Shown here: piece after piece, positions 4,206 to 34,780 of the stretch
How positions within the stretch are numbered: the first letter of the stretch is position 1
Layout of the letters: every line of letters begins with the position of its first letter
Source of the DNA: Candidatus Eiseniibacteriota bacterium
GTDB lineage: Bacteria > Eisenbacteria > RBG-16-71-46 > CAZEPH01
Direction: 5' to 3'
Assembly (NCBI GenBank): GCA_044229145.1
Contig: JBGATO010000002.1
Span: 45,873-109,872, forward strand
Length of the DNA: 64,000 nucleotides
Notes under the pieces: model-generated
What the model was told of the DNA's origin: nothing
Databases searched by the model: none
Seen by the model: only the letters and a program-made list of their open reading frames with translations
Position numbers and translations under genes: made by a program

Positions 4206-7200
4206 ATGCACCCCTGTGTCCGCCACGGCCTCCGCGCCGCCGCCTTGCTGTGCGCTCTCGCGCTCGCCCCCGTCGCCCACGCCGCCACCTCGGGCGACTA
4301 CCGCACCTACAACTCCGGCGACTGGTCCAACCAGGCCGTCTGGCAGAGGTACGACGGCTCGTCGTGGATCAACGTCTCGACCTCGCCGACCTCCGCCGAC
4401 GGCGCGATCACGATCCGCGACAGCATCACGGTCACCACCTCGGTGACCGTCGATCAAGTGACGGTGAACGCCGGCAGGCAGATCACGATCAAGCTCGGGA
4501 AGACGCTGACGCTCGCCGACGGCGCGGACACCGACCTCACGATCAACGGCACCGTGCTCAACCAGGGCACGCTCGCGCTCACCGGCAGCGCGACCTGGGC
4601 GGTCAACGACGGCGGGACCTACATCCACAACACCGTGTCGGCCGTCGCCACCTCGCTGGACGCGGCGACGCTCGGCGCCGCGAGCACGATCATCTACCGC
4701 GGCTCGGACACGCTCGATCCGCCGTCGAGTCTCGGCGGCCGCACGTACGGCCACTTGCGCTACGAGTCGACGTCCGGCGCGTGGTCGTTCAATCCGACGA
4801 CGGGCCAGCCGATCACCATCCTCGGCGACTTCTTCCTCGGCACCGGCGTGACCATGACCGCCGCGAATACCGGCGTCATGACTTTCGGCGGCAACTACAC
4901 GATCGACGGCACGCTGACCAATAGCGGCGGCACGCAGAAGTACACGTTCACCGGTGCGGCGGCCACCGTCGCGGGCGCGGGCGCGATCACCTTCGAGCAG
5001 TTCAGCGTCCCGGCGGGCGCCGACCTCACGCTGGCGGCGCCGGTGACGCTGGCGTCCGGCTTCACGGCGACGGTCGACGGCACGCTGGAGGCCAACGCGG
5101 CGCTCACGGCGAACAGCACGCCGCAGGTCAACGGGACGCTGCGCCTGAATGGCGGGTCGATCTCGAGCCAGCCGACCTATGGTGCGGCGTCGACGCTGGT
5201 GCTGAACGCGACCGGCGCCGTGGGGAACGAGTGGGGTGACTCCGGCAGCACCGCCGGGCCGGGCGTGCCGCAGAACGTCAGCGTCCTCTCCGGGACCGCG
5301 ACGATGCCGGCCGCCGCGCGCACCTGCCCCGGCACGCTGAGTCTCGACGGCGGGTCGCTCACGCTTGGCGGCGCCGACCTCACCGTGGGGCAATCGCTGG
5401 CCCTCACCAGCGGCGTGCTCGCCACCGGCGGCAACACCGTCATCCTCGCCAGCGGCGGCACGGTGACGCGCGGCACGGGCCAGGTGAACGGACTGCTGCG
5501 GAAGACGGTCCCCACCGGCGCGCCCAGCGTGACCTTCGAGATCGGCGACGGCGCGCGCTACACGCCGGTCAAACTCGACTTCGCCAGCGTGACCACCGCC
5601 GGTCCGGTGACGGCGGGCACCACGACCGGCGACAATCCCCAGCTCGCGACGTCGAAACTCGACGGCGCCAAGTCCGTGAACCGCTGGTGGACGCTCACGC
5701 CCGGCAGCTTCGTGTTCACCACCTGCGATGCCAAGTTCACCTTCGACCCGGCGGATGTGGACGCCGGCGCCACTCCGGCGAACTTCATCGTCGGGCGATA
5801 CGACTCCGCGGCGTGGAGCTACCCGGCTCTCGGCAACCTCACGACGACGAGCACGCAGGCCACCAACCTCACGGCCTTCGGCGATTTTGCCCTCGGGGAG
5901 ACGATCGCGTTCACGATCACCGCCACGGCCGGCGCGAACGGCAGCATCAACCCCAGCGGCGCGGTCAGCGTGACCTACGGCAACAACAAGAATTTCACGA
6001 TAGCGCCCAACCCCTCGTACTACGTGGAAGACGTGCTGGTGGATGGCGTGAGCGTCGGGGCGGTGGACAGCTACAAGTTCTTCGACGTGCGGGCCAACCA
6101 CACCATCGCCGTGTCGTTCGCGCTAGGAACGCTGGCGTATCGCTCGGCGGCATCGGGCAACTGGAACAGCCCGACGACATGGGAGGTGTTTGACGGCGCG
6201 GCGTGGGTCGCGGCCAGCGCGCTTCCCGATCCGTCGCTGGCCGGCCCGATCACCATCCGCAGCCCGCACGTCGTCACCTGCACGGACTCGCAGACGGTCG
6301 ACGAACTCACGGTAGATGCCGGCGCGACCCTCACCGTGAACGAAGGGGAGGCAGTCGCGGTGCAGGACGGCCCGGGGACCGACTTGGTATTGAACGGCAC
6401 CCTCCACAGCATGGGCACATGCTACATGGCCTTCACCTCAAACGGCGAGGTGAACGACGGCGGCAACTACATTATCTATGCGGCATCAAACGGCCAATTA
6501 GCCAACCTAGTACTCTCGGTCCACAGCACCGTTACCTATCGTACGGAAGATGGTGTCGGTCCCTTCCATGGGGACATGACGAGCTACGGAAACCTCGTGA
6601 TTGACGGGACAGGGGTCGTGGGATTTCAGGGTAACTTGGATCTCACCGTCAGAGGAGACTGCCTGATATTGGGGGCCTCGATGCATGTCACGGCAACGGG
6701 GACGCTTCGCTTCGCCGGGGACGTCACATGCCTATCGGGTTACTTCGATCTCGATCAGAACGATGAAGAAGGTCACACCCAGATTTGCGAGTTCACGGGC
6801 GTGGGGAAGACGGTCAGCGGCTCGTTCCCCCAAATGGAGCAGGTCAAGATCCCCACCGGGGCCGACATCACAATCGAGGGCCAGTTTGTCTTCCTTCCGG
6901 GATTCGAGTCCTCCATCGACGGCACTCTGCGCGCCCAAGGGGGGGACATCACCGCAGATGGGACGGTGCGGGTCAAGGGCACCGTGCGGCTCGCGGGCGG
7001 TCCAGGTAAAGTGAAAGGGACTGGATCATTCTCGTACACCGCCGGTGCGACGCTGATTTACGATGGCGATGTCACGATGGACGCCGTCTCGTGGCCCTCT
7101 GCAAATGGCCCTACCAAGGTGACCGTCAGCAGCGGCGCAAAACTCAACATGGGCGCAGCCGCGCGAACGGTGAGCGGGACATTCCGGACGGCGGGGATTG

Positions 7201-8279
7201 TGAAGGGCAACTCGGGTGCGCTCACACTCCCCGGCGTGACGCAGATCGATCCCGGCGGCTCCTTTAACTTCACGCCGACGTACACCACGGGCTCGACACT
7301 TGTGTACAACAGTTCGGCGACCGTCGGCTCCGAGTGGAAGGCTGGCTCGGTCGCCGGCCTCGGCGTACCACAAAACGTCACCATCCAGCCGGGCGTGGGC
7401 GCCGCCGTCTCGCTGCCCGCCACCGATCGCACCTGTCCGGGCACGCTGACGTTGACCAACGGCACGCTGGCGACGGGCAACGTGACGATGATCGCCGCCG
7501 GATCCGTCGTGCGCACCGGTGGCTGGGTGAATGGCCGCTTGCAGAAGCCTGTGGCGGCGGGTGCCGTGTCGCAGGTGTTCGCGATCGGCGACTCGACCCG
7601 CTACGCGCCGGTCCAGGTGAACTACACGTCGGTCTCGGTGGGCGGCACGGTGACCGCGTCGACGACGGCGGGCGATCACCCGAGCATCGCCAGCTCGCCG
7701 CTCAACCCGGCGAAGACGGCGAACCGCGTGTGGACGCTGACCAACGTGGGGACGGTGTTCGACTCGGCGGCGGTGACGGTCACCTTCGACCCGCTCGACG
7801 TGGACGCGGGGGCCGACCCGGCGGTGTTCCTCGTGGGGCGATTCACCGCGCCCTCGACGTGGACCGCGCCGGCCGTCGGCGCACGCACCGCGACGAGCAC
7901 GCAGGCGACGGGGCTCACGGCGTTCGGCGACTTTGCCGTGGGCGAGGCTCCGGCGCCGGTGGCGGTCGGTGACCCGTGGCTGGTGAGCACGGCGATCCCG
8001 GCGGCGACGGCGCTGTTGCCTGCTGCACCGAACCCGGCGCATGGAGTCGCGCACCTGCGCTTCGCCTTGCACGAGCGCGGACCGGTGCGCCTGGCCGTGT
8101 ACGACATCCGCGGGCGTCTCGTGCGCACGCTGCTGCGCGCCGACGCGATCGCCGGCACGCACGGCCTCGTGTGGGACACGCGTGACGCGAGCGGTCACGC
8201 GGTGGGCGCGGGGCTGTACCTGCTGCGGCTCGAGACGGGCGGACGCGCCGTCACCGGCCGCTTGCAGATCGTGCGCTAG
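4206..8279 (+). CDS. giant secreted repeat protein (adhesin-like) with TIGR04183-like C-terminal sorting domain
   Basis: ATG 4206. Signal peptide MHPCVRHGLRAAALLCALALAPVAHAATS. Two homologous ~600-aa halves separated by an InlB-B-repeat-like segment (FTITATAGANGSINPSGAVSVTYGNNKNFTIAPNPSYYVEDVLVDGVSV...HTIAVSF). C terminus NPAHGVAHLRF...VRLAVYDIRGRLVRTLL...GLYLLRLETGGRAVTGRLQIVR resembles a Por-secretion tail. Confidence 0.8.
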   Translation: MHPCVRHGLRAAALLCALALAPVAHAATSGDYRTYNSGDWSNQAVWQRYDGSSWINVSTSPTSADGAITIRDSITVTTSVTVDQVTVNAGRQITIKLGKTLTLADGADTDLTINGTVLNQGTLALTGSATWAVNDGGTYIHNTVSAVATSLDAATLGAASTIIYRGSDTLDPPSSLGGRTYGHLRYESTSGAWSFNPTTGQPITILGDFFLGTGVTMTAANTGVMTFGGNYTIDGTLTNSGGTQKYTFTGAAATVAGAGAITFEQFSVPAGADLTLAAPVTLASGFTATVDGTLEANAALTANSTPQVNGTLRLNGGSISSQPTYGAASTLVLNATGAVGNEWGDSGSTAGPGVPQNVSVLSGTATMPAAARTCPGTLSLDGGSLTLGGADLTVGQSLALTSGVLATGGNTVILASGGTVTRGTGQVNGLLRKTVPTGAPSVTFEIGDGARYTPVKLDFASVTTAGPVTAGTTTGDNPQLATSKLDGAKSVNRWWTLTPGSFVFTTCDAKFTFDPADVDAGATPANFIVGRYDSAAWSYPALGNLTTTSTQATNLTAFGDFALGETIAFTITATAGANGSINPSGAVSVTYGNNKNFTIAPNPSYYVEDVLVDGVSVGAVDSYKFFDVRANHTIAVSFALGTLAYRSAASGNWNSPTTWEVFDGAAWVAASALPDPSLAGPITIRSPHVVTCTDSQTVDELTVDAGATLTVNEGEAVAVQDGPGTDLVLNGTLHSMGTCYMAFTSNGEVNDGGNYIIYAASNGQLANLVLSVHSTVTYRTEDGVGPFHGDMTSYGNLVIDGTGVVGFQGNLDLTVRGDCLILGASMHVTATGTLRFAGDVTCLSGYFDLDQNDEEGHTQICEFTGVGKTVSGSFPQMEQVKIPTGADITIEGQFVFLPGFESSIDGTLRAQGGDITADGTVRVKGTVRLAGGPGKVKGTGSFSYTAGATLIYDGDVTMDAVSWPSANGPTKVTVSSGAKLNMGAAARTVSGTFRTAGIVKGNSGALTLPGVTQIDPGGSFNFTPTYTTGSTLVYNSSATVGSEWKAGSVAGLGVPQNVTIQPGVGAAVSLPATDRTCPGTLTLTNGTLATGNVTMIAAGSVVRTGGWVNGRLQKPVAAGAVSQVFAIGDSTRYAPVQVNYTSVSVGGTVTASTTAGDHPSIASSPLNPAKTANRVWTLTNVGTVFDSAAVTVTFDPLDVDAGADPAVFLVGRFTAPSTWTAPAVGARTATSTQATGLTAFGDFAVGEAPAPVAVGDPWLVSTAIPAATALLPAAPNPAHGVAHLRFALHERGPVRLAVYDIRGRLVRTLLRADAIAGTHGLVWDTRDASGHAVGAGLYLLRLETGGRAVTGRLQIVR
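4296..5900 (+). repeat. internal tandem duplication, copy 1 (within giant secreted protein gene)
   Basis: Residues ~31-565 (YRTYNSGDWSNQAVWQRYDGSSW ... TAFGDFALGE) align along their length with residues ~645-1240. Confidence 0.7.
6138..7926 (+). repeat. internal tandem duplication, copy 2 (within giant secreted protein gene)
   Basis: Residues ~645-1240 (YRSAASGNWNSPTTWEVFDGAAW ... TAFGDFAVGE). Shared blocks include STLV.N..A.VG.EW...GS.AG.GVPQNV and RTCPGTLSL/TLT, TFDP.DVDAGA.PA.F.VGR. Boundaries approximate. Confidence 0.7.
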
Positions 8280-11814: not shown

Positions 11815-12135
11815 CTACTCTCCGTACATCTCCGTCAGCGTGCGGCGGAGCGCGGACGCCTCGACGGCGGTGAGCCGTCCGATCTTGTCGCGCACACGCT
11901 TCTTGCTCACCGTGCGAATCTGATCGACCGCCACGTCGGCCGGTTGCCCCTCGCATTTGACCAGCACGCGTGACCGCCAGGTCGGCCTCGGTTGCGAGGT
12001 AAGCGGACACACCGTGATGGTGTGCAGGTGCCGATTCAGTTCGTCGAGACTGACGATGACGGCCGGCCGAGTCTTGCCGATCTCCGCGCCGCGCACGGGA
12101 TCGAACTCGACCCACACGATGTCGTAGCGCTTCAT
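11815..12135 (-). CDS. mazF: MazF/PemK-family type II toxin (mRNA interferase)
   Basis: Start MKRYDIVWVEFDPVRGAEIGKTRPAVIVS (cat 12133-12135), the classic PemK/MazF N-terminus. Overlaps the upstream antitoxin gene by 4 nt (ATGA). Confidence 0.8.
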   Translation of the reverse strand: MKRYDIVWVEFDPVRGAEIGKTRPAVIVSLDELNRHLHTITVCPLTSQPRPTWRSRVLVKCEGQPADVAVDQIRTVSKKRVRDKIGRLTAVEASALRRTLTEMYGE

Positions 12136-12455
12136 CGCCGCGGCTTCCGCGGCGACTTGGTTTTGTAGGCGGGAGCCTTTTCCGCGACCTTCGAGACCCA
12201 CGGGGCGGATTCGAGCCCGTCGGCATTCGTCGAATCCCATGCCGCCCAATCCTCGACGGCGGCTGCCATTTCACGCGCCGTATCAGCCCACGAGAGCTTC
12301 TCGGCGGCGTTTCCCGCGGGCCGCAGCAGGATGCCGTCGCTACGCTCCTCCATGATGACACTGTCGCCGATGTGGAAGCGCTTGAGCGTCGCGGCGGGAA
12401 TCCGCACGCCGCGCGAGTTGCCGATCTGGGCGATTTTCAGGCGGATAGCTGGCAT
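12132..12455 (-). CDS. mazE: MazE/AbrB-family antitoxin (SpoVT/AbrB domain)
   Basis: Start MPAIRLKIAQIGNSRGVRIPAATLKRFHIGDSV (cat 12453-12455), a swapped-hairpin AbrB fold. Lies immediately upstream of mazF and is translationally coupled to it. Confidence 0.75.
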   Translation of the reverse strand: MPAIRLKIAQIGNSRGVRIPAATLKRFHIGDSVIMEERSDGILLRPAGNAAEKLSWADTAREMAAAVEDWAAWDSTNADGLESAPWVSKVAEKAPAYKTKSPRKPRR

Positions 12456-13030: not shown

Positions 13031-14009
13031 CTACTGCGAGCCGCCGCCGAGGAGGCACTCCATGTACACGACGCCCTCCAGCGGATTGTCGTAGTACGGC
13101 GCGATCTCGACGAAGCCGAGCGTGCGGTACAGCGCCTGCGCCGCCTGCATCTGCTGTGGCGAGCGTGTCGAGGCGCATCGCGCGGTAGCCGATCTCGCGC
13201 GCCGCATCGAGCACGGCGAGCGCGAGCGCGCGGCCGAGGCCGGTGCCGCGTGCCGAGGGCGTGACGAACAGCCGCTTCATCTCGCAGATGTCGCCGTCGA
13301 GCGGACGCATCGCGATGCAGCCGACGGCGGTGCCTTCGCCCGTTTCCGCCACGAACAGCCGCCCGCGCGGCGGCGCGTACTTGCCCGGCAGCGCCGCGAG
13401 TTCCGCCGAGAAGCCCTGGAAGCACAGATCGAGCGCCGTGTCCTCTTCGTACGCGCGGAACAGCGCCCGCACGGTGTCGAGATCGGCGTCCAGCGCCGGG
13501 CGAATCACGAATGGCGACGAGGTGCCCTGTCCCACGATCGCACTCCTCCTCTCGAGCAACACGGTGTCGCGCCACACGCCGTGCAGACGCCCGACCCGCT
13601 CTCGCACGCCGACGTCGCGGAAGCCGCAGGCGCGATGCAGCGCGAGGCTCGCCGCGTTGTCGGCCAGCACGCCGGCCTGCAGCGTCCACACGCCCGCCGC
13701 CTCCGACGCGGCGATCAGCGCCTCCAGTAATGCGCGGCCGACGCCCTGTCCGCGCGCCGACGCCGCAACGTACAGCCCGACATCCGCGACACCGCGATAG
13801 CACGCCCGCGACGACACCGGCGACAGCGCCGCCCAGCCGACGACCGCGCCGTCGCGCCGCGCCACCAGCCGTCCGGCCGCCAGCCGCGACGCATCGAATC
13901 GCTCCCACGACGGCACCGCCGTCTCGAACGTCGCCATGCCGGTGGCGATGCCCTCGGCATAGATCGCCGCGATGGCCGGCCAGTCGGCGGCTGTGAAGGT
14001 GTCGATCAT
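13031..14009 (-). CDS. tandem-GNAT N-acetyltransferase, apparent +1 frameshift near 3' end
   Basis: Start [17 protein letters not shown] (cat 14007-14009). Two GNAT cores (..[17 protein letters not shown].. and ..[18 protein letters not shown]..). After ...AMRLDTL the frame yields junk. Shifting by one nt at ~13160 restores the canonical GNAT end [42 protein letters not shown], with stop at 13031. Confidence 0.6.
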
Positions 14010-14539
14010 GCGTGTCTCCGGCGATGCGGCCACGTCGGCCCGGGCGGCGGCGGCACCGCCGCGTCCGGCGCCGCGCGCCGCGCGAGTTCGAGCCGCAACG
14101 AATCGAGCCCGCGCGCCATCGCCCAGCGGTGATTGAAGGCGAACAGCGGCCGCAAGAACGGCGTCAGCGCGCGCAAGAGCGGCTTCTCGGCGCGGATGCG
14201 CCAGTCGTAGACGATGTCGACGTCGTCGCCGCGCTGCGTGAACGTCCACTCGCCGCGCCCGACGAAATCGCCCTCGGCGGCGATGGTGAAGCCATGCGGC
14301 GTGCGCACGTCGACGACGCGGAAGTGCCAGCGCAGCGTGTACGGCAGCCAGCCCTTCGTCCACAGCGCGACCCGGCGGCCGACGCCGCGCGCGTCGCCCG
14401 GCTCGACGACGCGGACGTCGAGGTACACGCTTGGCCACCAGCGCGCGAGGCCGGGCGCGTCGCCGAGGATGTCGCTGACCTCCTGCGCGGTGCCGGGCAC
14501 CGTCCAGCGGGTGACGAAGTGGTAGTCGTTGACGGCCAT
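14006..14539 (-). CDS. SRPBCC-family (polyketide cyclase/START-like) protein
   Basis: Start MAVNDYHFVTRWTVPGTAQEVSDILGD (cat 14537-14539). Typical SRPBCC N-terminus. Overlaps the downstream GNAT start by 4 nt. Confidence 0.7.
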   Translation of the reverse strand: MAVNDYHFVTRWTVPGTAQEVSDILGDAPGLARWWPSVYLDVRVVEPGDARGVGRRVALWTKGWLPYTLRWHFRVVDVRTPHGFTIAAEGDFVGRGEWTFTQRGDDVDIVYDWRIRAEKPLLRALTPFLRPLFAFNHRWAMARGLDSLRLELARRAAPDAAVPPPPGPTWPHRRRHA

Positions 14540-14653
14540 CGCCTCTCTCGTGCGCGGAACTGTCGGGGGGAGGACGTATGCTCCGGGGCCCACGCGGAGA
14601 CTCGGAGATTTCATGGACGGACGTTCGGCACCGGCACGGCGGATCGCAGCGCG

Positions 14654-15784
14654 ATGAGATTCCTGCACACCGCCGATTGGCATCTCGGCCGCATGCTCGC
14701 CGGCTACTCGCTGCTCGATGATCAAGCGCACGTCCTCGACCAGTTCGTCGCGCTGGTGCGCGAGACGCGGCCGGACGCCGTGCTGCTCGCCGGAGACGTC
14801 TACGATCGCGCGGTGCCGCCGGCCGACGCGGTCGCGTTGCTCGACGACACGGTCGCGCGTCTGGCGGCGTGCGGCGTGCCGCTCGTCGCGATCGCCGGGA
14901 ATCACGATAGCCCCGAGCGTCTCGGCTTCGGCAGCCGCCTTTTCGCGGGCGGCGGGGTCCACATCGCGGGGCCACTGGGGGCCACGCCGTTGCGCGTGCC
15001 GCTGGCGGACGCGCACGGGCCGCTGCACATCGTCGCGCTGCCGTACGCGGAGCCGGCGGTGGTGCGCGAGGTGCTCGGCCGCGACGACCTCGACTCGCAC
15101 GACGCGGCGATGGGCGCACTGTGCGACGTGGTGCGCGCGGCGACGCCGGCCGGCACGCGGGTGGTGCTCGTCGCGCACGCGTTCGTGGCGGGCGGCGAGG
15201 AGAGCGCGTCGGAGCGCGCGCTGAGCGTCGGTGGCAGCGGCGTCGTGGCGCCGGAGCGCTTCGACGGCTTCGCGTACGTGGCGCTTGGGCACTTGCATCG
15301 CCCGCAGTTGGCGGGCGGGCCGCGCGTGCGCTACAGCGGGTCGCTGCTCAAGTACTCGGCGAGCGAGGCGCTGCAGCGCAAGTCGGTGTCGCTCGTCGAG
15401 GTCGACGCGGCGGGCGCGGCGCAGGTCGAGGAGATCACGCTGGCGCCGCGGCGCGATTTGCGCGTGGTGACAGGCGAACTCGACACGCTGCTGCGCGAGC
15501 CGCCGAGTGACGACTACATCCACGTGCGCCTGCTCGACCGCGAGCCGCCGCACCAGCCGGCGGAGCGGTTGCGCGCGGTGTTTCCGTCTCTGCTCGGCGT
15601 CGAGTTCGCCGGTGTCGACGCGCCCGGCTCGCTGGATGTCACCGCGATCGAACGCACGCGCCGCCGCAGCGACCTCGAGGTGTTCGACGACTTCGTCCGC
15701 GCGATGACCGGCGAGGCGATGTCCGACGCGGAGCGCGAGGCGTTCGCGGCCGCCGTCGGCACGCGTGCGGAGGACGACGCGTGA
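14654..15784 (+). CDS. sbcD: exonuclease SbcCD, nuclease subunit D
   Basis: ATG 14654. MRFLHTADWHLGRML...LLAGDVYDR...IAGNHDSP...GHLHRP: the Mre11/SbcD calcineurin-like phosphoesterase motifs I-V. Confidence 0.9.
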   Translation: MRFLHTADWHLGRMLAGYSLLDDQAHVLDQFVALVRETRPDAVLLAGDVYDRAVPPADAVALLDDTVARLAACGVPLVAIAGNHDSPERLGFGSRLFAGGGVHIAGPLGATPLRVPLADAHGPLHIVALPYAEPAVVREVLGRDDLDSHDAAMGALCDVVRAATPAGTRVVLVAHAFVAGGEESASERALSVGGSGVVAPERFDGFAYVALGHLHRPQLAGGPRVRYSGSLLKYSASEALQRKSVSLVEVDAAGAAQVEEITLAPRRDLRVVTGELDTLLREPPSDDYIHVRLLDREPPHQPAERLRAVFPSLLGVEFAGVDAPGSLDVTAIERTRRRSDLEVFDDFVRAMTGEAMSDAEREAFAAAVGTRAEDDA

Positions 15785-18700
15785 AGCCGCTGCGGCTACG
15801 TCTCCGCGCCTTTGGCGCCTTCGCCGGCGAGTGCGACCTCGACTTCCGCACCCTCGGCGCGCGCACCTTCTTCCTCATCCACGGGCCCACGGGCGCGGGG
15901 AAGTCGACCATCCTCGACGCGCTCTGCTTCGCCCTGTACGGCGAAAGCTCCGGCGACGAGCGCAGCGGCGCGCAACTGCGCTCCGATTACGCCGCGCCCG
16001 AGACGCCGACCGACGTCACGCTCGACTTCGCCGTCGGACGCGAGATCTACCGTGTCCAGCGCGCGCCTGAATACGAACGGGCGAAGAAGCGCGGCGAGGG
16101 CACCACGACCGTGAAGGCGTCGGCGACGTTGTGGCGCCGCACTGGCTGCGCGCGCGACGAGGACGAGGGCCGCGTGCTGGCCGCCAAGCCGAGCGACGCG
16201 ACGAAGGAAATCGAGCGCTTGCTCGGCTTCCGCGCCGAGGAGTTCCGCCACGTCGTCGTGTTGCCGCAGGGCCGCTTCCGCGAGGTGCTGACGTCGTCGA
16301 CGGACGATCGCAAGGCGATCTTCGAGAAGCTGTTCCGCACCGCGCGGTTCGCGTCGGTGCAGAAGACGCTCGACACGCGGGCGAAGGAGGCGCGGCGCGC
16401 GCTCGACGACGCGCTGACGGCGGTGCAGGCGCTACTCGATCGCGCCGGCGTCGCGGACGATGCCGGACTCGCCGCGCAGGTGGGCGAGCTGGCCGCGGCG
16501 GAAACGGCGGCGGCGGCGGCGTTGCAGACGGCGGCCGCGGCCGAGGCGCATGCGCGTGCGACGTTGCAGGCGGCGCAGGAGGTCGACGCGAAGTTCGTCG
16601 AGGCGGCGAACGCCGATGCGGCGCTGACCGCGTTGGAAGCGGAGCAGGCGACGCATGTCGCGCGTGCCGCGCGGCTGGAGGCCGCCGGGCGCGCGACGCA
16701 CGTGGACGCCGCGGCGCAGGCGGCGGTGACGGCGGGCGAGGAGGTTGCCCGCGCGCAGACCCGCGCGGATCAGGCCGGCGTGGCCGCGTCGGAGGCAACT
16801 GCGCGCGCGGCGCAGGCGAGCGAGGCGCGGGCGACGCGGAGGCGCGCGTGCCGGAGCAGGCCGCCGCGCGCCGAGGAGGCGTGGGCTCGACGCGCTCGCC
16901 GTGCATGCGAGTGCGTGGGACAGAGGCGCGTGGGAGCATGGCGGAGGCGGCGCGGACGGCGCTCGACGCTGCGGGGCGCGCGACGGCCGCGGGTGCGGCG
17001 GAAGCGTGCGACGCCGCGCGCCTCGGCGCGGCGAACGCCGCCGTCGCCGCGACGCCTGCGCGCCGAGGCCGCGAAGGCAGAGGCCGCGCGCCGCGCCGCC
17101 TCCGACGCGGCGGCGCTCTGCACGACGGCACAACAGGCCGCCGACCTCGCTCGCACGCTGGCGACAGAGCGCGATGTCGTCGAGAGCGACCAGGGCGCCG
17201 TCGCCCGCGCGCAGGAGATGGCTGCCGCCGCCCACGAGCAGGTCGCCGCGTGCAGCTGCGTGGCTCGCAGATCAGGCGGCGCTGCTCGCCGCGCGCCTCG
17301 TCGACGGCGAGCCGTGCGCCGTCTGCGGCGCCCGCACCCGGCGCCGGCGCGCGTCGACGGTGGCGGCGTCTCGTCCGGTGACCTCACCACCGCGCGCGAC
17401 GCCGCGCGTACCGCCGATGCCGCGGTGGCCACTGCGCTCGAAGCGCTCGGACGCTCGCAGGCTGCCGTCGCACGCTCCGAGGAGAAACTCGCCGGCCTGC
17501 TCCGCGCACTGCCCGCTTTCGAGGGCGACGTCGACGCGCATGTGCCGGCTGGCGCGCCGTCGCCGAGGACGCGGCGGCGAGCCGCCGCGGCCGAGGAGGC
17601 GGCGAGCCGGCTCCCCGCATTGCAGGCCGCCGCGGACGCGGCATCCGCCGCCTTGCGACCGCCAGCACCGCCGCCGACACCGCGCGCGGCGACGTGCAGC
17701 GCCTCGAAGGCGCGGCGGCGGCGGCCGCCGCTGCCCTTGCCCGCGCCGAGGCCGCGCTCCCGCCGGGTGGCGCTCGGCGCGACGGCGCCCTCGAGGCCGC
17801 GCGCACCGCGCACCAGGCGACGATCGAGGCCATCGATGCCGCGCCCACGCAGAGCCGCGCCGACGATCGACCGCCGCCCAGGCCGCCGTGGCGGCGGCCG
17901 CCGCCACGGCCGCACGCGAGCACCTCGCCGAGCGCACGACCGCCGCCACCGCCGCCGAATCCGCCTTCCTCGCCGCATGCACAGCGCATGGATTCGCCGA
18001 CGCCACCGCCTACCGCGCCGCGCGACTCGACGCCGCGGAACACGCCGCCCTGCGCGCTGCCCACGACGCGCACGAGCAAGCGCTCGCCGCCGCCCGCGAC
18101 CGCCGCGACCGCGCCGCCGCCGCGCTCGACGGTCTCGCACGCCCTGACCTCGCCGCCGCGCGCGACGCGGACGCCGCCGCCACCGCGCAGCGCACCGCCG
18201 CCGCCACCGCGCACGGCACGGCGCGCGAACGCCACGCCGCCGCCGTCGCCACGCGCGCGAGATCGCCACGCGCCGCGCCGCGCGCCGAGGATGAAGCGCG
18301 CTACCGCACGCTGCAGCGCCTCGCCGACCTCGCCTCCGGCAAGTCGACGCCGCGCCGCATCGACTTCCACACCTACGTGCAACTCGCGTATCTCGCCGAC
18401 GTGCTCGCCGCCGCCAGCCGCCGTTTGCTGGCGATGACAGGCGGCCGCTTCCGCCTCGTCACCCACGAGGCGGCACTCGACAAGCGCGCGAAGGAAGGTC
18501 TCGACATCGACGTGTTCGACGCGAACACCGGCGCCGTGCGCTCGGCCCGCACGCTCTCGGGCGGCGAAGGCTTCATGGCGGCGCTCAGTCTGGCGCTCGG
18601 CCTCGCCGACGTCGTGCAGCGCACCACCGGCGGCATCCACCTCGACACCATCTTCGTCGACGAAGGATTCGGCAGCCTCGATCAAGAATCGCTGGACGCC

Positions 18701-18846
18701 GCGATGCGTGCCCTGGTGGACTTGCAGGAAGGCGGCCGCATGGTCGGCGTGATCTCGCACGTCACCGAAATGCTGCAGCAGATCCCAACGCGCCTCGAGG
18801 TCCGCGGCGGCCGCGGCGGCAGCAGCGCGCGGTTCGTCATCGGATG
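15781..18846 (+). pseudogene. sbcC: exonuclease SbcCD ATPase subunit C; reading frame disrupted (pseudogene or sequencing indels)
   Basis: GTG 15781 overlaps the sbcD stop. N-terminal Walker A FLIHGPTGAGKST in frame 1 is intact to ~16850. The zinc hook LVDGEPCAVCGA (~17310) is only in frame 2. HPAPARVDGG...ALEALGRSQAAVARSEEKLAGLL is back in frame 1. QRLEGAAAAAAAALARAEAAL is in frame 0. From ~17870, signature and Walker B/D-loop (TLSGGEGFMAALSLALGLADV...IFVDEGFGSLD) are in frame 2 to the stop at 18846. Total length (~1022 codons) is as expected for SbcC. Confidence 0.7.
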
Positions 18847-20166
18847 AGGAGAATCCCCGTGAAGCGTCTCGCCCTCGCGGCCGCGCTGTCGTGCGTGCCG
18901 CTCGTCTCCCATGCCGCGCTCGCCCCGGCCGAACGTCGCCTCGCGCAGGCAGTCACGAAGCGCGAGCCGGCCGCGCAGGCGTTCCTCCACCGCGTCGTCG
19001 ACATCAACAGCGGCACGATGAACTTCGACGGCGTGCGCGAGGTCGCGAAGGCATTCGCGCCGGAGTTCGAGAAGCTCGGATTCACGACACGCTGGGTCGA
19101 CGGCGCGGGGTGGCATCGCGCCGGACATCTCATCGCCACCCGCGCCGCCGCGAAGCGTGGCGCGCCACAGGTGCTGCTGATCGGCCACCTCGACACCGTC
19201 TTCGAGAAGGACAGCCCGTTCCAACGCATGACGCCGCTCACCGACTCGACCGCTACCGGCCCGGGCCTCAGCGACATGAAGGGCGGCGACGTCGTCGTGC
19301 TCCTCGCGCTCCAGGCGATGCGCGACGCCGGCGTGCTCGACCGCATGACCGTCACCGTCTTCCTCTGCGGCGACGAGGAAAAGCGCGGCGAGCCGGAAGA
19401 CCTCGCGCGCGGCGATCTCCTCGCCGCGGCACGCGACGCCGACATCGCGCTCGGCTTCGAGGACGGCGACGGCGACCCCGGCCACGCGGTCATCGCGCGG
19501 CGCGGGTCGATGGGGTGGACGCTACGCGTGCACGGGACACCGTCGCACTCGTCGCAAATCTTCCGCGCCGACATCGGCATGGGCGCGGTGTACGAGGCCG
19601 CGCGTCTGCTCACCGCGTTTCGCGACTCGCTCGGTGGCGATCCGCTGCTCACCTTCAACGCCGGCCTCATCCTCGGCGGAACGACGGTCACCCACGACCC
19701 GCAGACGAGCAGCGGCACCGCGTTCGGCAAGACCAACGTCGTCCCCGAGAGCACCATCGTGAAGGGCGACCTGCGCGCGATCAGCCCGGAACGCTTCGAT
19801 GAGGCGCGGGCGACGATGACACGGATCGTCGCCGCGTCGTCGCCGCACACCAGCGCCACCATCGTCTTCGGCGACCGCTATCCGCCGCTCGCGCCGACGC
19901 CCGGCAACGATGCGCTGCGCGCGCTCTACAGCGCGGCGAGCCGCGATCTCGGCTACGGGGAGGTCACCGCGATGGATCCGTCACGCGCCGGCGCCGCCGA
20001 CATCTCGTACACGGCGGGTTTGGTCGGAGGCGCCATCGACGGCATCGGCATGCGCGGCGATCAAGAACACACGGTCGGCGAATGGGCGAACCTGCGCTGG
20101 CTGCCGCGCCAAGCGCAACGCTTGGCCGTGACGCTGACACGCTGGGCCGCGGGGCGCGGCCGCTAG
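18844..20166 (+). CDS. M20-family metallopeptidase (carboxypeptidase G2-like), secreted
   Basis: ATG 18844 (alternative GTG 18859). Signal peptide. M20 motifs HLDTV, DMKGG, CGDEE. Confidence 0.85.
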   Translation: MRRIPVKRLALAAALSCVPLVSHAALAPAERRLAQAVTKREPAAQAFLHRVVDINSGTMNFDGVREVAKAFAPEFEKLGFTTRWVDGAGWHRAGHLIATRAAAKRGAPQVLLIGHLDTVFEKDSPFQRMTPLTDSTATGPGLSDMKGGDVVVLLALQAMRDAGVLDRMTVTVFLCGDEEKRGEPEDLARGDLLAAARDADIALGFEDGDGDPGHAVIARRGSMGWTLRVHGTPSHSSQIFRADIGMGAVYEAARLLTAFRDSLGGDPLLTFNAGLILGGTTVTHDPQTSSGTAFGKTNVVPESTIVKGDLRAISPERFDEARATMTRIVAASSPHTSATIVFGDRYPPLAPTPGNDALRALYSAASRDLGYGEVTAMDPSRAGAADISYTAGLVGGAIDGIGMRGDQEHTVGEWANLRWLPRQAQRLAVTLTRWAAGRGR

Positions 20167-31981: not shown

Positions 31982-34780
31982 ATGCGCTCGACGTCCTGCG
32001 CACCGCGTCTCGTGACGTGGTGCCTCCCTCTGCTTGCCCTCGTCCCCCTCGCCTCCGCGAGCGGGGCTACACGCACCGGTTCCGTCCCTCGTGCCGCAAT
32101 CTCGCGCGATCCCGACAATCGCCTGGCGGCCAGCCGCGTGTGGCGCGGTTTTCCAGGCGCCACGGTGGCCGCCGGCGACATCGCCGCGTCTGCCACCGAC
32201 GGGTCGATGTCGACCGCCGTCACGATGCCGGCCGGCGAAGCGCTCGAATTCCAGTTCATCGGCGCCCCCCGCTGGCTCAGCGAGATCACGGTGCAGACGG
32301 ATGCGCCCCTGTGGCGGGTGGACGTGCGCGGACTCGACGGCCAGTGGACGACGTTCGGCGCTGGCTCCTCGCACGGTGTCGAGCAGCCGGTGACGTTGAC
32401 GGGCGAGGCGGTGCAGGCAGTCGGAGTGCGCTTCGTGCCCGCCGCCGCAGCACCGTCGGCTCCGGCCGTGCGGCTGGCGGAGATCGCCGCGCACTTCCGG
32501 TATCACGATCCCGATGACGCCGGCCGTGCCGCAGCGGGTAACACCTATCACTCAGATTGGGTGAATCACTATTCCGGCGACACCAACGACCTGAGCAAAT
32601 GCGACGACGACTCGCGTGATCTGCGCGACGCCCTGCAGAACCACAGTTGGACGACGTGGGAACACACCGAGACGAACGCGCACGAAGCGCACTTCAAGTC
32701 GACCATCATCGGGACAGGCGACAACAACGATCACGCGGACAACGCGGATCTTGCGTACTTCTCCGGCCATGGCTCGAGCGGCACCGTCGATCCGGTGTAT
32801 ACCGGGACCGCGTTGGGCTCGATGCTGTTCGACGACGAAACACACGATGACGCCACGCTGGTGCCGAGCGACATGGACGATTCGTGGGGCAACGGCGAGA
32901 TGGAGTGGCTGATCTCCACGTCCTGCCGCACCCTGCGCGGCGAAGGGCGCCCGTACTGGAAGTGGGGCATGGAAGGCGTGCATCTGCTCTGCGGCTCGGA
33001 ATCGTCGATCGCCGACCAGTCGTATGGAGACGTTCTCGGCGACGAGTTGATCGACAACGGCATCTTCGACAGCCCGATCACCGTGAAGCAGGCGTGGTTC
33101 GACGCGATGGAGGAGTGGAACGGCGGGCACGACGTGGCGGTCGTGCAGGGCGAAACATCGGTGATGGGCACCGATTTCATCTGGGGCGAAGGGTCCGTTT
33201 CCGCAGATCCTGTCGTCGACAACACCTCATTCGTCTGGCTCTACGATGTGGGAGCCACTGCGCCGTCGCGCGGCCAGCTCCCGGCGGTGCCGCGCCTGCA
33301 CGATCCCGTGCGAATCCGCGCGGCCGGCCGTGCCGCCTGGACGGTGCGTCTCGAACGTGCCGAACTCGAGCGCCCAGCGGCGGCGCAGATGCCGGTGTGG
33401 AACGTGGTGCCGCGCATGGTCGATTCGGTGTACGTGCGCAACCTGTCCAACCAGGTGTGCGGCGTGTACGGCCAGCTGTGCGCCACCGACATCGGGATCG
33501 GCGCGCCGAATGAATACACCAGTGTCCAGGGGCCCTACCAACTGCGCGTGCGCACCGAGACCGGCGGCCTCTCGCTGACCGACGTGTCGAATTGGATGTC
33601 GGTGCGGGCGATTCCGCCGCAGCTGCTCACCGGACAGGCGGCGCTCACTCAGGCGGATCAAATCCTCACGCAGTTGAATTTCAGGCCGGCGGATGCGACC
33701 GCCACAGGGGTGTCCTACCTCTGGCAGCGCGGCGAGAGCGCCACCGGACCCGGCTCGCTGGCGGCCGGGGACACCAGCTTTGCGATCGCCACGAAGGTGA
33801 CGTTTACGCGGCGGGTCGGCAGCGGCGAAGGCTATCCGGTCTTCGGCCCGGGCGCCTCGATCTCCGTCACCATGGGGCACAATGGGGCGCTTCAGCGGAT
33901 CTTCGGCCGCGGGTGGCGGCAACTGTCGCAGGGTGCCCAGGCGACGATTCTCCCGCTCAGCACACTGCTGCCGTCGCTCTCGGCGCTCGGCAACGGCGCC
34001 TTGCTCGACCCGGTGCGGCAGCCGATCGACAGCCTGGTGATCACCAATTGGGAGCTCGGCTACTTCGAACCGGGATGCCGGGAAGCGGTGAACTCGTTGC
34101 GCCCCACGTACCGGCTGCACTGCATCTGCTACGAAGGCACGACCACGTTCGCCGCGGACTTCTCGATGTACGCGGACGCGCTGCCGCTCAACGCGACCAT
34201 TCTCACGCCCGTGGAGGACTTCACGATTCCGCCGGGCGGCAGTGTCTGCTTCAACGGATCGGCCAACGGCGGCACTTCGCCGTACAGCGCGGAGTGGGTG
34301 CACGACGACGGCGAGATCTTCAGTGGCTGGATGTGGTGCCGCACGCTCGGCATGCCGGCCGACCCGCACTCGAACCAGGACAGCGTCCGCACCATGACGC
34401 TCCGGGTCACCGACAGCCGCGGCGCGGTCGCGGAGGCGAAAGTCCACGTCCGTCTGGCGACGGTGACTGCGGCGGATCTCGGCACGGGCGCCCAGGCCGG
34501 CGACGGCTTCCAATCCGTGCCGTCCGTGCTGCGGGATGGCGCCACGCTCGGCTTCCGGGTGCCGGACGGCGGCGGACGCGGGCCGGTTTCGCTGCGTCTC
34601 GTCGACCCTTCGGGGCGCATCGTGCGGACTCTCTTCGAGGGACACCCGGGCGACGGCGCGACGACTGTCCGCTGGAGCCGGTCGGACGCGACGGGAGGGA
34701 AGCTCGCGGCGGGCGTGTACTGGCTCATTCTCGACGCGCCCGCGCTCCACCAATCGCGGCGCATCATCGTCGTCGACTAA
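31982..34780 (+). CDS. secreted 932-aa protein with putative clan-CD-like peptidase module and C-terminal sorting domain
   Basis: ATG 31982 with GGAGGA RBS. Signal peptide MRSTSCAPRLVTWCLPLLALVPLASASG. His-Gly ... Cys dyad candidates (ADLAYFSGHGSSG ... WLISTSCRTLRGE). C terminus VSLRLVDPSGRIVRTLF...AAGVYWLILDAPALHQSRRIIVVD is TIGR04183-like. Confidence 0.75.
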   Translation: MRSTSCAPRLVTWCLPLLALVPLASASGATRTGSVPRAAISRDPDNRLAASRVWRGFPGATVAAGDIAASATDGSMSTAVTMPAGEALEFQFIGAPRWLSEITVQTDAPLWRVDVRGLDGQWTTFGAGSSHGVEQPVTLTGEAVQAVGVRFVPAAAAPSAPAVRLAEIAAHFRYHDPDDAGRAAAGNTYHSDWVNHYSGDTNDLSKCDDDSRDLRDALQNHSWTTWEHTETNAHEAHFKSTIIGTGDNNDHADNADLAYFSGHGSSGTVDPVYTGTALGSMLFDDETHDDATLVPSDMDDSWGNGEMEWLISTSCRTLRGEGRPYWKWGMEGVHLLCGSESSIADQSYGDVLGDELIDNGIFDSPITVKQAWFDAMEEWNGGHDVAVVQGETSVMGTDFIWGEGSVSADPVVDNTSFVWLYDVGATAPSRGQLPAVPRLHDPVRIRAAGRAAWTVRLERAELERPAAAQMPVWNVVPRMVDSVYVRNLSNQVCGVYGQLCATDIGIGAPNEYTSVQGPYQLRVRTETGGLSLTDVSNWMSVRAIPPQLLTGQAALTQADQILTQLNFRPADATATGVSYLWQRGESATGPGSLAAGDTSFAIATKVTFTRRVGSGEGYPVFGPGASISVTMGHNGALQRIFGRGWRQLSQGAQATILPLSTLLPSLSALGNGALLDPVRQPIDSLVITNWELGYFEPGCREAVNSLRPTYRLHCICYEGTTTFAADFSMYADALPLNATILTPVEDFTIPPGGSVCFNGSANGGTSPYSAEWVHDDGEIFSGWMWCRTLGMPADPHSNQDSVRTMTLRVTDSRGAVAEAKVHVRLATVTAADLGTGAQAGDGFQSVPSVLRDGATLGFRVPDGGGRGPVSLRLVDPSGRIVRTLFEGHPGDGATTVRWSRSDATGGKLAAGVYWLILDAPALHQSRRIIVVD

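Follow-up and report, generated by a model that had tools for sequence, protein, structure and literature searches.

In a 64,000-nt stretch of contig JBGATO010000002.1 from a Candidatus Eiseniibacteriota bacterium (the window), the reading frame of sbcC is broken at least six times, always within the coiled-coil region of the encoded protein. The partner gene sbcD, immediately upstream, is intact. On balance, the small insertions and deletions (indels) responsible are probably errors left over from the sequencing, consensus calling, or assembly of a contig derived from a metagenome. Such errors would have arisen in the stretch that is hardest to sequence and polish (79-84% GC, with low-complexity Ala/Arg/Glu codon repeats), and the strain diversity of the sampled population would have been a further factor. 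The indels would then be absent from the real DNA, and in the organism sbcC would be a single open reading frame (ORF) of ~1020 codons. An earlier note on this DNA, made from the letters alone, had offered two options, an inactivated sbcC or a cluster of indel errors in a GC-rich region of Ala/Arg codons. The evidence that could be tested fits this pair of options and leans toward the second.

We named the three plus-strand frames relative to the start of the gene, such that position minus 15781 is divisible by three for f0, and f1 and f2 are the other two frames. No single ORF spans sbcC (15781-18847, plus strand): f0 is open over 15781-18147 and f1 over 16745-18847. In a three-frame read-out with third-position GC calculated per frame, believable coiled-coil text hopped among all three frames from ~16830 to ~17870, and the off-frames over the coiled coil read as Arg/Pro/Gly-rich nonsense. 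Coding signal was kept in every frame segment, as judged by third-position GC and by a Viterbi parse of codon usage. The annotation of the source contig contains a 319-aa C-terminal SbcC product, running from a GTG at 17888 to the sbcC stop, and lacks the 788-aa f0 ORF; hence, sbcC is split in the source annotation too. As sequenced, the locus is unable to encode SbcC.

The frame switches were located by two methods. The first (method A) used codon log-odds, in-frame versus off-frame, trained on 13 other genes of the window, and parsed the sequence with a Viterbi algorithm in which skips of 1 or 2 nt were allowed at a penalty. The parse was stable over penalties of 8 to 12 nats and gave six switches in sbcC: ~16825 (f0 to f2, net -1), ~17055 (f2 to f0, +1), ~17257 (f0 to f1, +1), ~17339 (f1 to f0, -1), ~17656 (f0 to f2, -1), and ~17868 (f2 to f1, -1). 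When the number of shifts was fixed in the dynamic programming (DP), the score rose from 355.5 nats for one shift to 404.5 for two, 461.0 for four, 497.2 for six, and 511.9 for eight, and each pair of switches up to six gained 36 to 56 nats. As a null, an extra pair of shifts was allowed in each of nine intact sbcC genes from GC-rich relatives. These control pairs gained just 7.5 to 17.7 nats; therefore, the six shifts in the window sbcC are significant. An extra pair at 17545/17580 (+14.7 nats) and three shifts at 16869-16922 (smaller gains) were not significant. We do not claim them, because their gains are no larger than those seen in the intact controls; up to three further shifts may nevertheless lie in segment 2 at ~16869-16922. 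A model with one frameshift, from f0 to f1, was also rejected. It scored 355 nats, versus 497 for six shifts. Under this model, the HPAPA motif that follows the zinc hook and 500 nt of coiled coil would be read as Arg/Pro-rich nonsense.

The second method (method B) relied on homology only. A profile hidden Markov model (HMM) was built from 109 full-length homologs of 1000-1050 aa, and its matches to the window DNA fell in all three frames (Table 1). When the same 109 homologs were compared with the DNA by tblastn, the N-terminal head was found in f0 for 108 of them, the hook in f1 for ~44, and the C-terminal head in f1 for 102. A GeneWise-like, frameshift-aware alignment of the DNA to the 109-homolog profile, written for this analysis, placed shifts at 17251, 17333, 17644, and 17871 with penalties of 8 and 11 nats. 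With a penalty of 5 it also placed shifts at 16837, 16872, 16919, and 17055, so that the pair bounding segment 2 (16837, 17055) was recovered at low penalty only. The codon-usage and homology-only methods agree on the shift sites. In place of an uninterrupted ORF of ~1000-1050 codons, sbcC thus has at least four frameshifts by homology alone and six with codon statistics. The earlier note had named a single continuous frame in a frameshift-aware alignment as the outcome that would speak against it, and the alignment gave at least four shifts. Its estimate of ~6 indels holds, as does its layout of the gene: a Walker A N terminus in one intact frame (f0, to ~16825), a zinc hook in a different frame (f1, 17297-17332), coiled-coil text that alternates among three frames (segments from ~16825 to 17868), and a C-terminal signature and Walker B region that is clean in one frame (f1) to the stop.

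Table 1. Features of the sbcD-sbcC locus and of other parts of the window (positions are those of the window)
Feature	Position	Strand	Remarks
sbcD, intact, 376 aa	14654-15784	+	Pfam Metallophos and SbcD_C; NCBIfam TIGR00619, 171 bits versus cutoff of 77.65
sbcC, whole, interrupted	15781-18847	+	Spliced product of 1019 aa; no single ORF
sbcC segment 1, f0: N-terminal ATPase head and start of coiled coil	15781-16825	+	PF13476 AAA_23, E = 7.5e-21
Walker A, GPTGAGKS	15883-15906	+	f0, segment 1
VVLPQGRF (Q-loop-like LPQG)	16255-16278	+	f0, segment 1
sbcC segment 2, f2	16826-17055	+	Net -1 entering, +1 leaving; GC 82.6%; pair gains 56.5 nats (codon-usage DP)
sbcC segment 3, f0: coiled coil	17056-17257	+	Aligned to profile positions ~430-490
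sbcC segment 4, f1: zinc hook LVDGEPCAVCGA	17258-17334	+	Hook 17297-17332; CAVC 17315-17326
sbcC segment 5, f0: HPAPA, then descending coiled coil	17335-17656	+	HPAPA 17335-17349; aligned to consensus HPaPAra
sbcC segment 6, f2: coiled coil	17657-17868	+	GC 82.1%; pair gains 49 nats (DP); profile DP shifts 17644, 17871
sbcC segment 7, f1: end of coiled coil and C-terminal ATPase head	17869-18847	+	Profile positions 658-1020, 384 bits
LSGGEGF (signature)	18554-18574	+	f1, segment 7
Walker B/D-loop, IFVDEGFGSLD	18650-18682	+	f1, segment 7
VISHV (H-loop)	18749-18763	+	f1, segment 7
sbcC TGA stop	18845-18847	+	f1, segment 7
Profile match, f0	from 15781	+	HMM positions from 1
Profile match, f1, hook included	16796-17338	+	HMM 343-519, E = 7.6e-8
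Profile match, f2	17553-17867	+	HMM 591-694, E = 1e-4
Profile match, f1	17753-18841	+	HMM 658-1020, 384 bits
Stretch with GC of at least 79%	16551-18400		300-nt windows, maximum 83.7%; sole such stretch in 64 kb
Double-GNAT acetyltransferase gene, frameshifted	13031-14041	-	Frame switch at ~13157, after RAMRLDTLA

Of the lesions, the one at the zinc hook is best resolved. The homolog consensus is LAaeLaagepCPVCGsteHPaPA, and the window has LVDGEPCAVCGA in f1 followed by HPAPA in f0. Between CxxCG and HP there are 5 nt (GCCCG, 17330-17334), versus 9 nt in homologs, and the spacing of CxxCG, 3 aa, and HP is invariant in 109 of 109 homologs. We conclude that 4 nt are missing at this site. A change from GCC CGC GAG CAC to GCC CG. 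CAC, with GC microhomology, is one example that fits. The invariant hook context (CPVCG, three residues, HP) is not kept in this sbcC as sequenced, and what breaks it is the lesion itself. The hook also has Ala in place of Pro (CAVC for CPVC) at a column conserved in at least 97% of homologs.

When the segments are spliced, the product is a complete SbcC. Its 1019 aa agree with the normal overall length suggested earlier (1016-1027 aa in the best family matches), and it aligns over residues 1-1017 to 1-1020 of its match in one stretch, the best score being 532 bits with 44% identity. This best match, P0121, is probably from the Phycisphaerae genome bin contig of locus L014. Searches of protein databases, one of them exhaustive over 1.84 billion cluster representatives, gave nothing nearer than 44% identity end to end or ~60% over short local stretches. 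The spliced protein keeps all 56 invariant columns of the 109-homolog alignment and 92 of the 96 columns conserved in at least 97% (the minimum among homologs is 91). Walker A, LPQG, LSGGE, Walker B/D-loop, and H-loop are all present, and CAVC lies at residue 511 of 1019, or 0.500 of the length (0.499 +/- 0.004 in homologs). The best match in PDB was E. coli SbcC (6S6V chain C; E = 2e-36). With NCBIfam TIGR00618 (sbcc), the spliced protein scored 251.5 bits, below the cutoff of 478.5. All top NCBIfam families were SbcC families with scores under their curated cutoffs; hence, the protein belongs to a divergent SbcC lineage. It has the N-terminal P-loop half-domain, the C-terminal half-domain, and a long, antiparallel coiled coil with a mid-length CxxC, and a co-oriented sbcD adjoins the gene. 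Judged by these features, the gene is an ordinary sbcC, whose predicted product is the Rad50-like ATPase subunit of SbcCD nuclease. Nothing points to a new system or mechanism.

As the earlier note had stated, sbcD is intact (Table 1). Its TGA stop overlaps the GTG start of sbcC (GTGA), an arrangement from which sbcC is predicted to be translationally coupled to sbcD. A scan of genome contigs with SbcD gave nothing above 59% identity (Cupriavidus) among the matches listed.

The composition of the DNA sets the affected region apart. The window has a GC content of 69.8%, and all six significant lesions lie inside its only stretch with at least 79% GC. There are six lesions in 1.05 kb of sbcC coiled coil, versus one in ~57 kb of coding DNA elsewhere. 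Neither the codon-usage DP nor the profile DP placed a lesion in the ~2 kb of head-coding DNA, so that 6 of 6 lesions are confined to the middle 34% of its length (P = 0.34^6, or ~0.002, for uniform placement). All of the indels are 1 to 4 nt, with mixed sign. Everywhere along the gene, dividing the distance from 15781 by three gives the profile position (17338, for instance, maps to HMM 519 and 17753 to HMM 658); therefore, the net length is unchanged. One part of the earlier note did not survive, namely, the proposal that at least two indels sit in G/C homopolymer runs. Across 16700-18000, just two runs reach 4 nt, and neither coincides with a shift; such runs are also sparser there than in the window on average. 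We therefore rejected homopolymers as the explanation of the indels. The shift contexts are instead GC-rich, imperfect short tandem repeats: the sites at ~16825 and ~17055 lie within the imperfect tandem repeats 16801-16846 and 17012-17056, and the nonsignificant pair 17545/17580 likewise lies within one (17546-17609).

As a separate observation, GC skew flips between the two coiled-coil arms of sbcC (16300-18400), from +0.14 in the ascending arm (local values up to +0.21) to -0.13 in the descending arm (down to -0.25). Arm 1 uses GCG/GAG-type codons and arm 2 GCC/ACC/CGC-type codons; owing to this contrast, the two arms share many imperfect inverted repeats at long range. The flip was not seen in most homologs and is partial in L014, which is probably the closest relative.

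Independent sequence from the organism was found in sequencing run SRR28480386; a literature search for this accession gave no papers. One Logan contig of this run (L081, 1.9 kb) corresponds to window positions 14213-16112. It encodes an identical SbcD and the first 330 nt of sbcC, and it ends at 16112, upstream of the lesions. A second (L082) covers a gene at 24.5 kb. L081 differs from the window by 3 substitutions (15891, 15948, and 15960), all synonymous and at third codon positions of sbcC, and L082 differs by 4 (25773, 25776, 25788, and 25800), spaced in multiples of three. The substitutions are clustered near contig ends, and both contigs are otherwise identical to the window. This pattern indicates that strains of the organism coexist in the sample, and it would fit purifying selection on the sbcC head in the population. 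Outside sbcC, the window matches this independent k-mer assembly base for base over 4.2 kb, the strain-specific single nucleotide polymorphisms (SNPs) excepted; hence, the window assembly is generally accurate. No Logan contig was retrieved for 16113-18847. An exact look-up of 14 candidate ORF products of the region, seven of them spurious off-frame or antisense products, found only the 319-aa fragment of the source itself. Exact look-up placed window proteins on a single NCBI contig of 114,485 nt. Among the proteins found in this way, 6 of 7 were the sole member of their 90%-identity cluster (~15 billion proteins), and the organism appears to be poorly sampled. The source is presumably a metagenome-assembled genome from a strain-diverse population.

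Strain diversity suggests a particular form of artefact, a chimeric consensus of coexisting strains. Collapsing or polishing alleles that differ by in-frame indels in the coiled coil, where the gene is most polymorphic, could leave partial indels in the consensus, which would shift the frame. Microdiversity is visible in the third-position SNP clusters at the ends of L081 and L082, and the lesions have no link to homopolymers. The coiled coil is also the least conserved part of the protein; homologs other than the window gene scored no more than 80 bits on the 649-aa middle region. Against this, no coiled-coil allele sequences from the population were retrieved, and the popping of de Bruijn bubbles alone should not turn in-frame polymorphism into frameshifts. 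We consider such a chimera unlikely. It is a subtype of artefact that overlaps the preferred reading and is given no separate share of its probability.

We checked the whole window with a six-frame version of the codon-usage model, at penalties of 10 and 7. At a penalty of 10, inspection traced every flagged site but one (~13157) to a gene end or to a junction where stop and start overlap. At a penalty of 7, sites without nearby stops were added (11968/12003, 31958, 44209, 55303, and 57199/57248); judged by position only, these lie near gene ends or in intergenic DNA. The site at ~13157 interrupts a double-GNAT acetyltransferase gene of ordinary GC content (~70-73%), in which Acetyltransf_7 (residues 215-302) is complete in the merged two-frame product only. 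With a second, unrelated gene frameshifted, the contig must contain either sporadic indel errors or a second pseudogene. No insertion sequences or other multicopy elements, which could have pointed to long-read assembly, were found among the 26 gene products scanned with Pfam (of ~50 predicted genes).

If the indels are real, sbcC is a genuine and fairly recent pseudogene: one inactivating frameshift would have been followed by small indels piling up in the slippage-prone, GC-rich repeats of the coiled coil, and the heads would have had too little time to decay. We regard this explanation as possible, and as less probable than errors in the contig. The locus as sequenced cannot encode SbcC, and the source gene calls split the gene. 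The 4-nt loss at a hook of invariant spacing, with GC microhomology and an adjoining Pro-to-Ala change, would fit real mutation, as would the sites at ~16825 and ~17055 inside imperfect tandem repeats. The contig is elsewhere identical to an independent assembly, and the broken GNAT gene would fit the normal bacterial pseudogene load of a few percent. The distribution of the lesions argues for errors. A gene under relaxed constraint should have lesions spread over its length and substitutions at conserved sites, which is not what was found: none lies in the heads, every invariant residue is kept, and 3 of 3 SNPs relative to the strain variant are synonymous. Bacterial pseudogenes usually carry larger deletions, and here there are only indels of 1 to 4 nt with the net length preserved. 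Both sbcD and its junction with sbcC are untouched.

The earlier note had also pointed to the corresponding locus in relatives. In 28 of 29 complete sbcD-sbcC loci of other species, sbcC is in one frame, unlike the broken gene of the window; these single-frame genes include some with 78-80% GC in the middle (L014, L059, and L079). This comparison bears on whether SbcC might still be expressed, each shift being bypassed by programmed ribosomal frameshifting or transcriptional slippage. Nothing speaks for such recoding beyond the fact that every frame segment looks coding. At least six recoding sites, some +1 and some -1, would be required; neither slippery heptamers nor long homopolymers were seen at the shifts, and we know of no precedent for multisite recoding in SbcC/Rad50. 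The anatomy of the gene effectively refutes recoding, which we consider extremely improbable.

The exception among the 29 loci (L057, 9143-12186) is from a Microflora Danica genome bin. Its sbcC is in five frame pieces, with four shifts, all in the coiled coil. In the Microflora Danica project, genomes were assembled with Flye from Nanopore reads only and polished by a single round of Medaka (PMC12313526). We also picked three truncated "SbcC N-terminal" proteins encoded on very long ENA contigs with long-read-style names. In the first (L083, 4001-6710), sbcC has one frameshift; in the second (L084, 4001-7051), it has an in-frame stop just before the hook; and in the third (L085, 4001-6671), it has many shifts, and sbcD is broken too. 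PacBio assemblies of GC-rich genomes have been reported to retain residual indel errors in GC-rich regions, mostly C/G deletions (PMC8574707). Many "partial SMC/AAA family ATPase" entries on long contigs may be fragments of such broken genes. The same loci can be read the other way. It is possible, and again less probable than an artefact, that a free-living, GC-rich bacterium recently lost SbcC and kept SbcD, repeat DNA of extreme GC content being a strong indel hotspot. If so, the broken sbcC genes of L057, L083, and L084 might be partly biological too.

Taken together, the evidence leans toward residual errors. The lesions are confined to the sole stretch with at least 79% GC, a composition that is hard to sequence, and the indels are tiny, leave the length unchanged, and preserve the coding signal. 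The heads, the invariant residues, and sbcD are pristine, the strain SNPs are synonymous, and there is no measurable decay. There is a second frameshifted gene, the source is metagenome-like, and four other public sbcC genes are broken. This reading, which also takes in the strain chimera, would best fit a long-read or hybrid assembly that escaped polishing wherever coverage by short reads failed. Several points weigh against this conclusion. If the contig were assembled from Illumina reads only, a rate of indel errors of ~0.6-1% across 1 kb would be highly exceptional. No lesion falls at a homopolymer, and the assembly is accurate where it could be compared. The 4-nt loss at the hook, with its GC microhomology, resembles a real slippage deletion as much as it does a consensus error, and the substitution in CAVC falls at a highly conserved column. 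Finally, GC-rich, repeat-like sequence could be a true mutational hotspot once the gene is dead.

The finding is useful chiefly as a quality flag. If errors account for the indels, the organism has a normal SbcCD, and annotations of the locus as an sbcC pseudogene or as a pair of partial ATPases are wrong. With four checked loci broken, public genome and metagenome assemblies have a recurrent weak spot in the GC-rich DNA that encodes the SbcC coiled coil. Such breaks could inflate pseudogene counts and yield spurious "partial SMC-family ATPase" proteins in databases. We suggest that this locus, and calls of split SbcC or "partial SMC ATPase" in GC-rich assemblies generally, be treated as suspect pending a check of the reads. 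Real indels would mean that a single lineage has lost one more dispensable repair gene, a finding of modest interest.

Other genes of the window were noted in passing. A type II toxin-antitoxin pair lies 2 kb upstream of sbcD, on the minus strand (11818-12446). It consists of a MazF/PemK-type toxin gene (11818-12162) and a MazE-type antitoxin gene (12135-12446), which overlap stop to start. On the plus strand, 4206-8279 encodes a 1357-aa protein with only a weak C-terminal match to FlgD_ig, and 32012-34780 encodes a 922-aa protein with DUF6345 and otherwise almost no recognizable domains. The window also encodes a CarboxypepD_reg-TonB receptor.

We compared the locus with three known cases. 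The first is SbcCD itself, with E. coli SbcC (6S6V) as the reference. The window gene shares the Walker A head, LPQG, a long coiled coil with the CxxC hook at mid-length, LSGGE, Walker B/D-loop, and H-loop; its sbcD is upstream and overlapping, and the product is colinear from end to end with SbcC proteins of 1016-1027 aa. It differs in its broken frame, in a hook with CAVC in place of CPVC and with 4 nt missing ahead of HP, and in its divergence, with a best identity of 44% and a score below the TIGR00618 cutoff.

The second case is an ordinary bacterial pseudogene. The window gene resembles one in that its ORF is disrupted and the source gene calls are split. In contrast to such a pseudogene, it has no head-domain lesions, no large deletions, and no decay of the partner gene, and it keeps 56 of 56 invariant residues.

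The third case is the indel error of long-read or hybrid assemblies. Here the likeness is in the small indels of mixed sign, concentrated in GC-rich sequence of a GC-rich genome (related literature, PMC8574707 and PMC12007338). Apart from these indels, conservation of the gene is perfect, and a second frameshifted gene lies nearby. In addition, sbcC is broken in the Nanopore-only L057 and in the long-read-style ENA contigs L083 and L085. The differences are that the window lesions are not at homopolymers and that one of them spans 4 nt. Elsewhere the window is nearly free of frameshifts, which fits a short-read-polished assembly with a gap in coverage better than it fits an unpolished long-read assembly.

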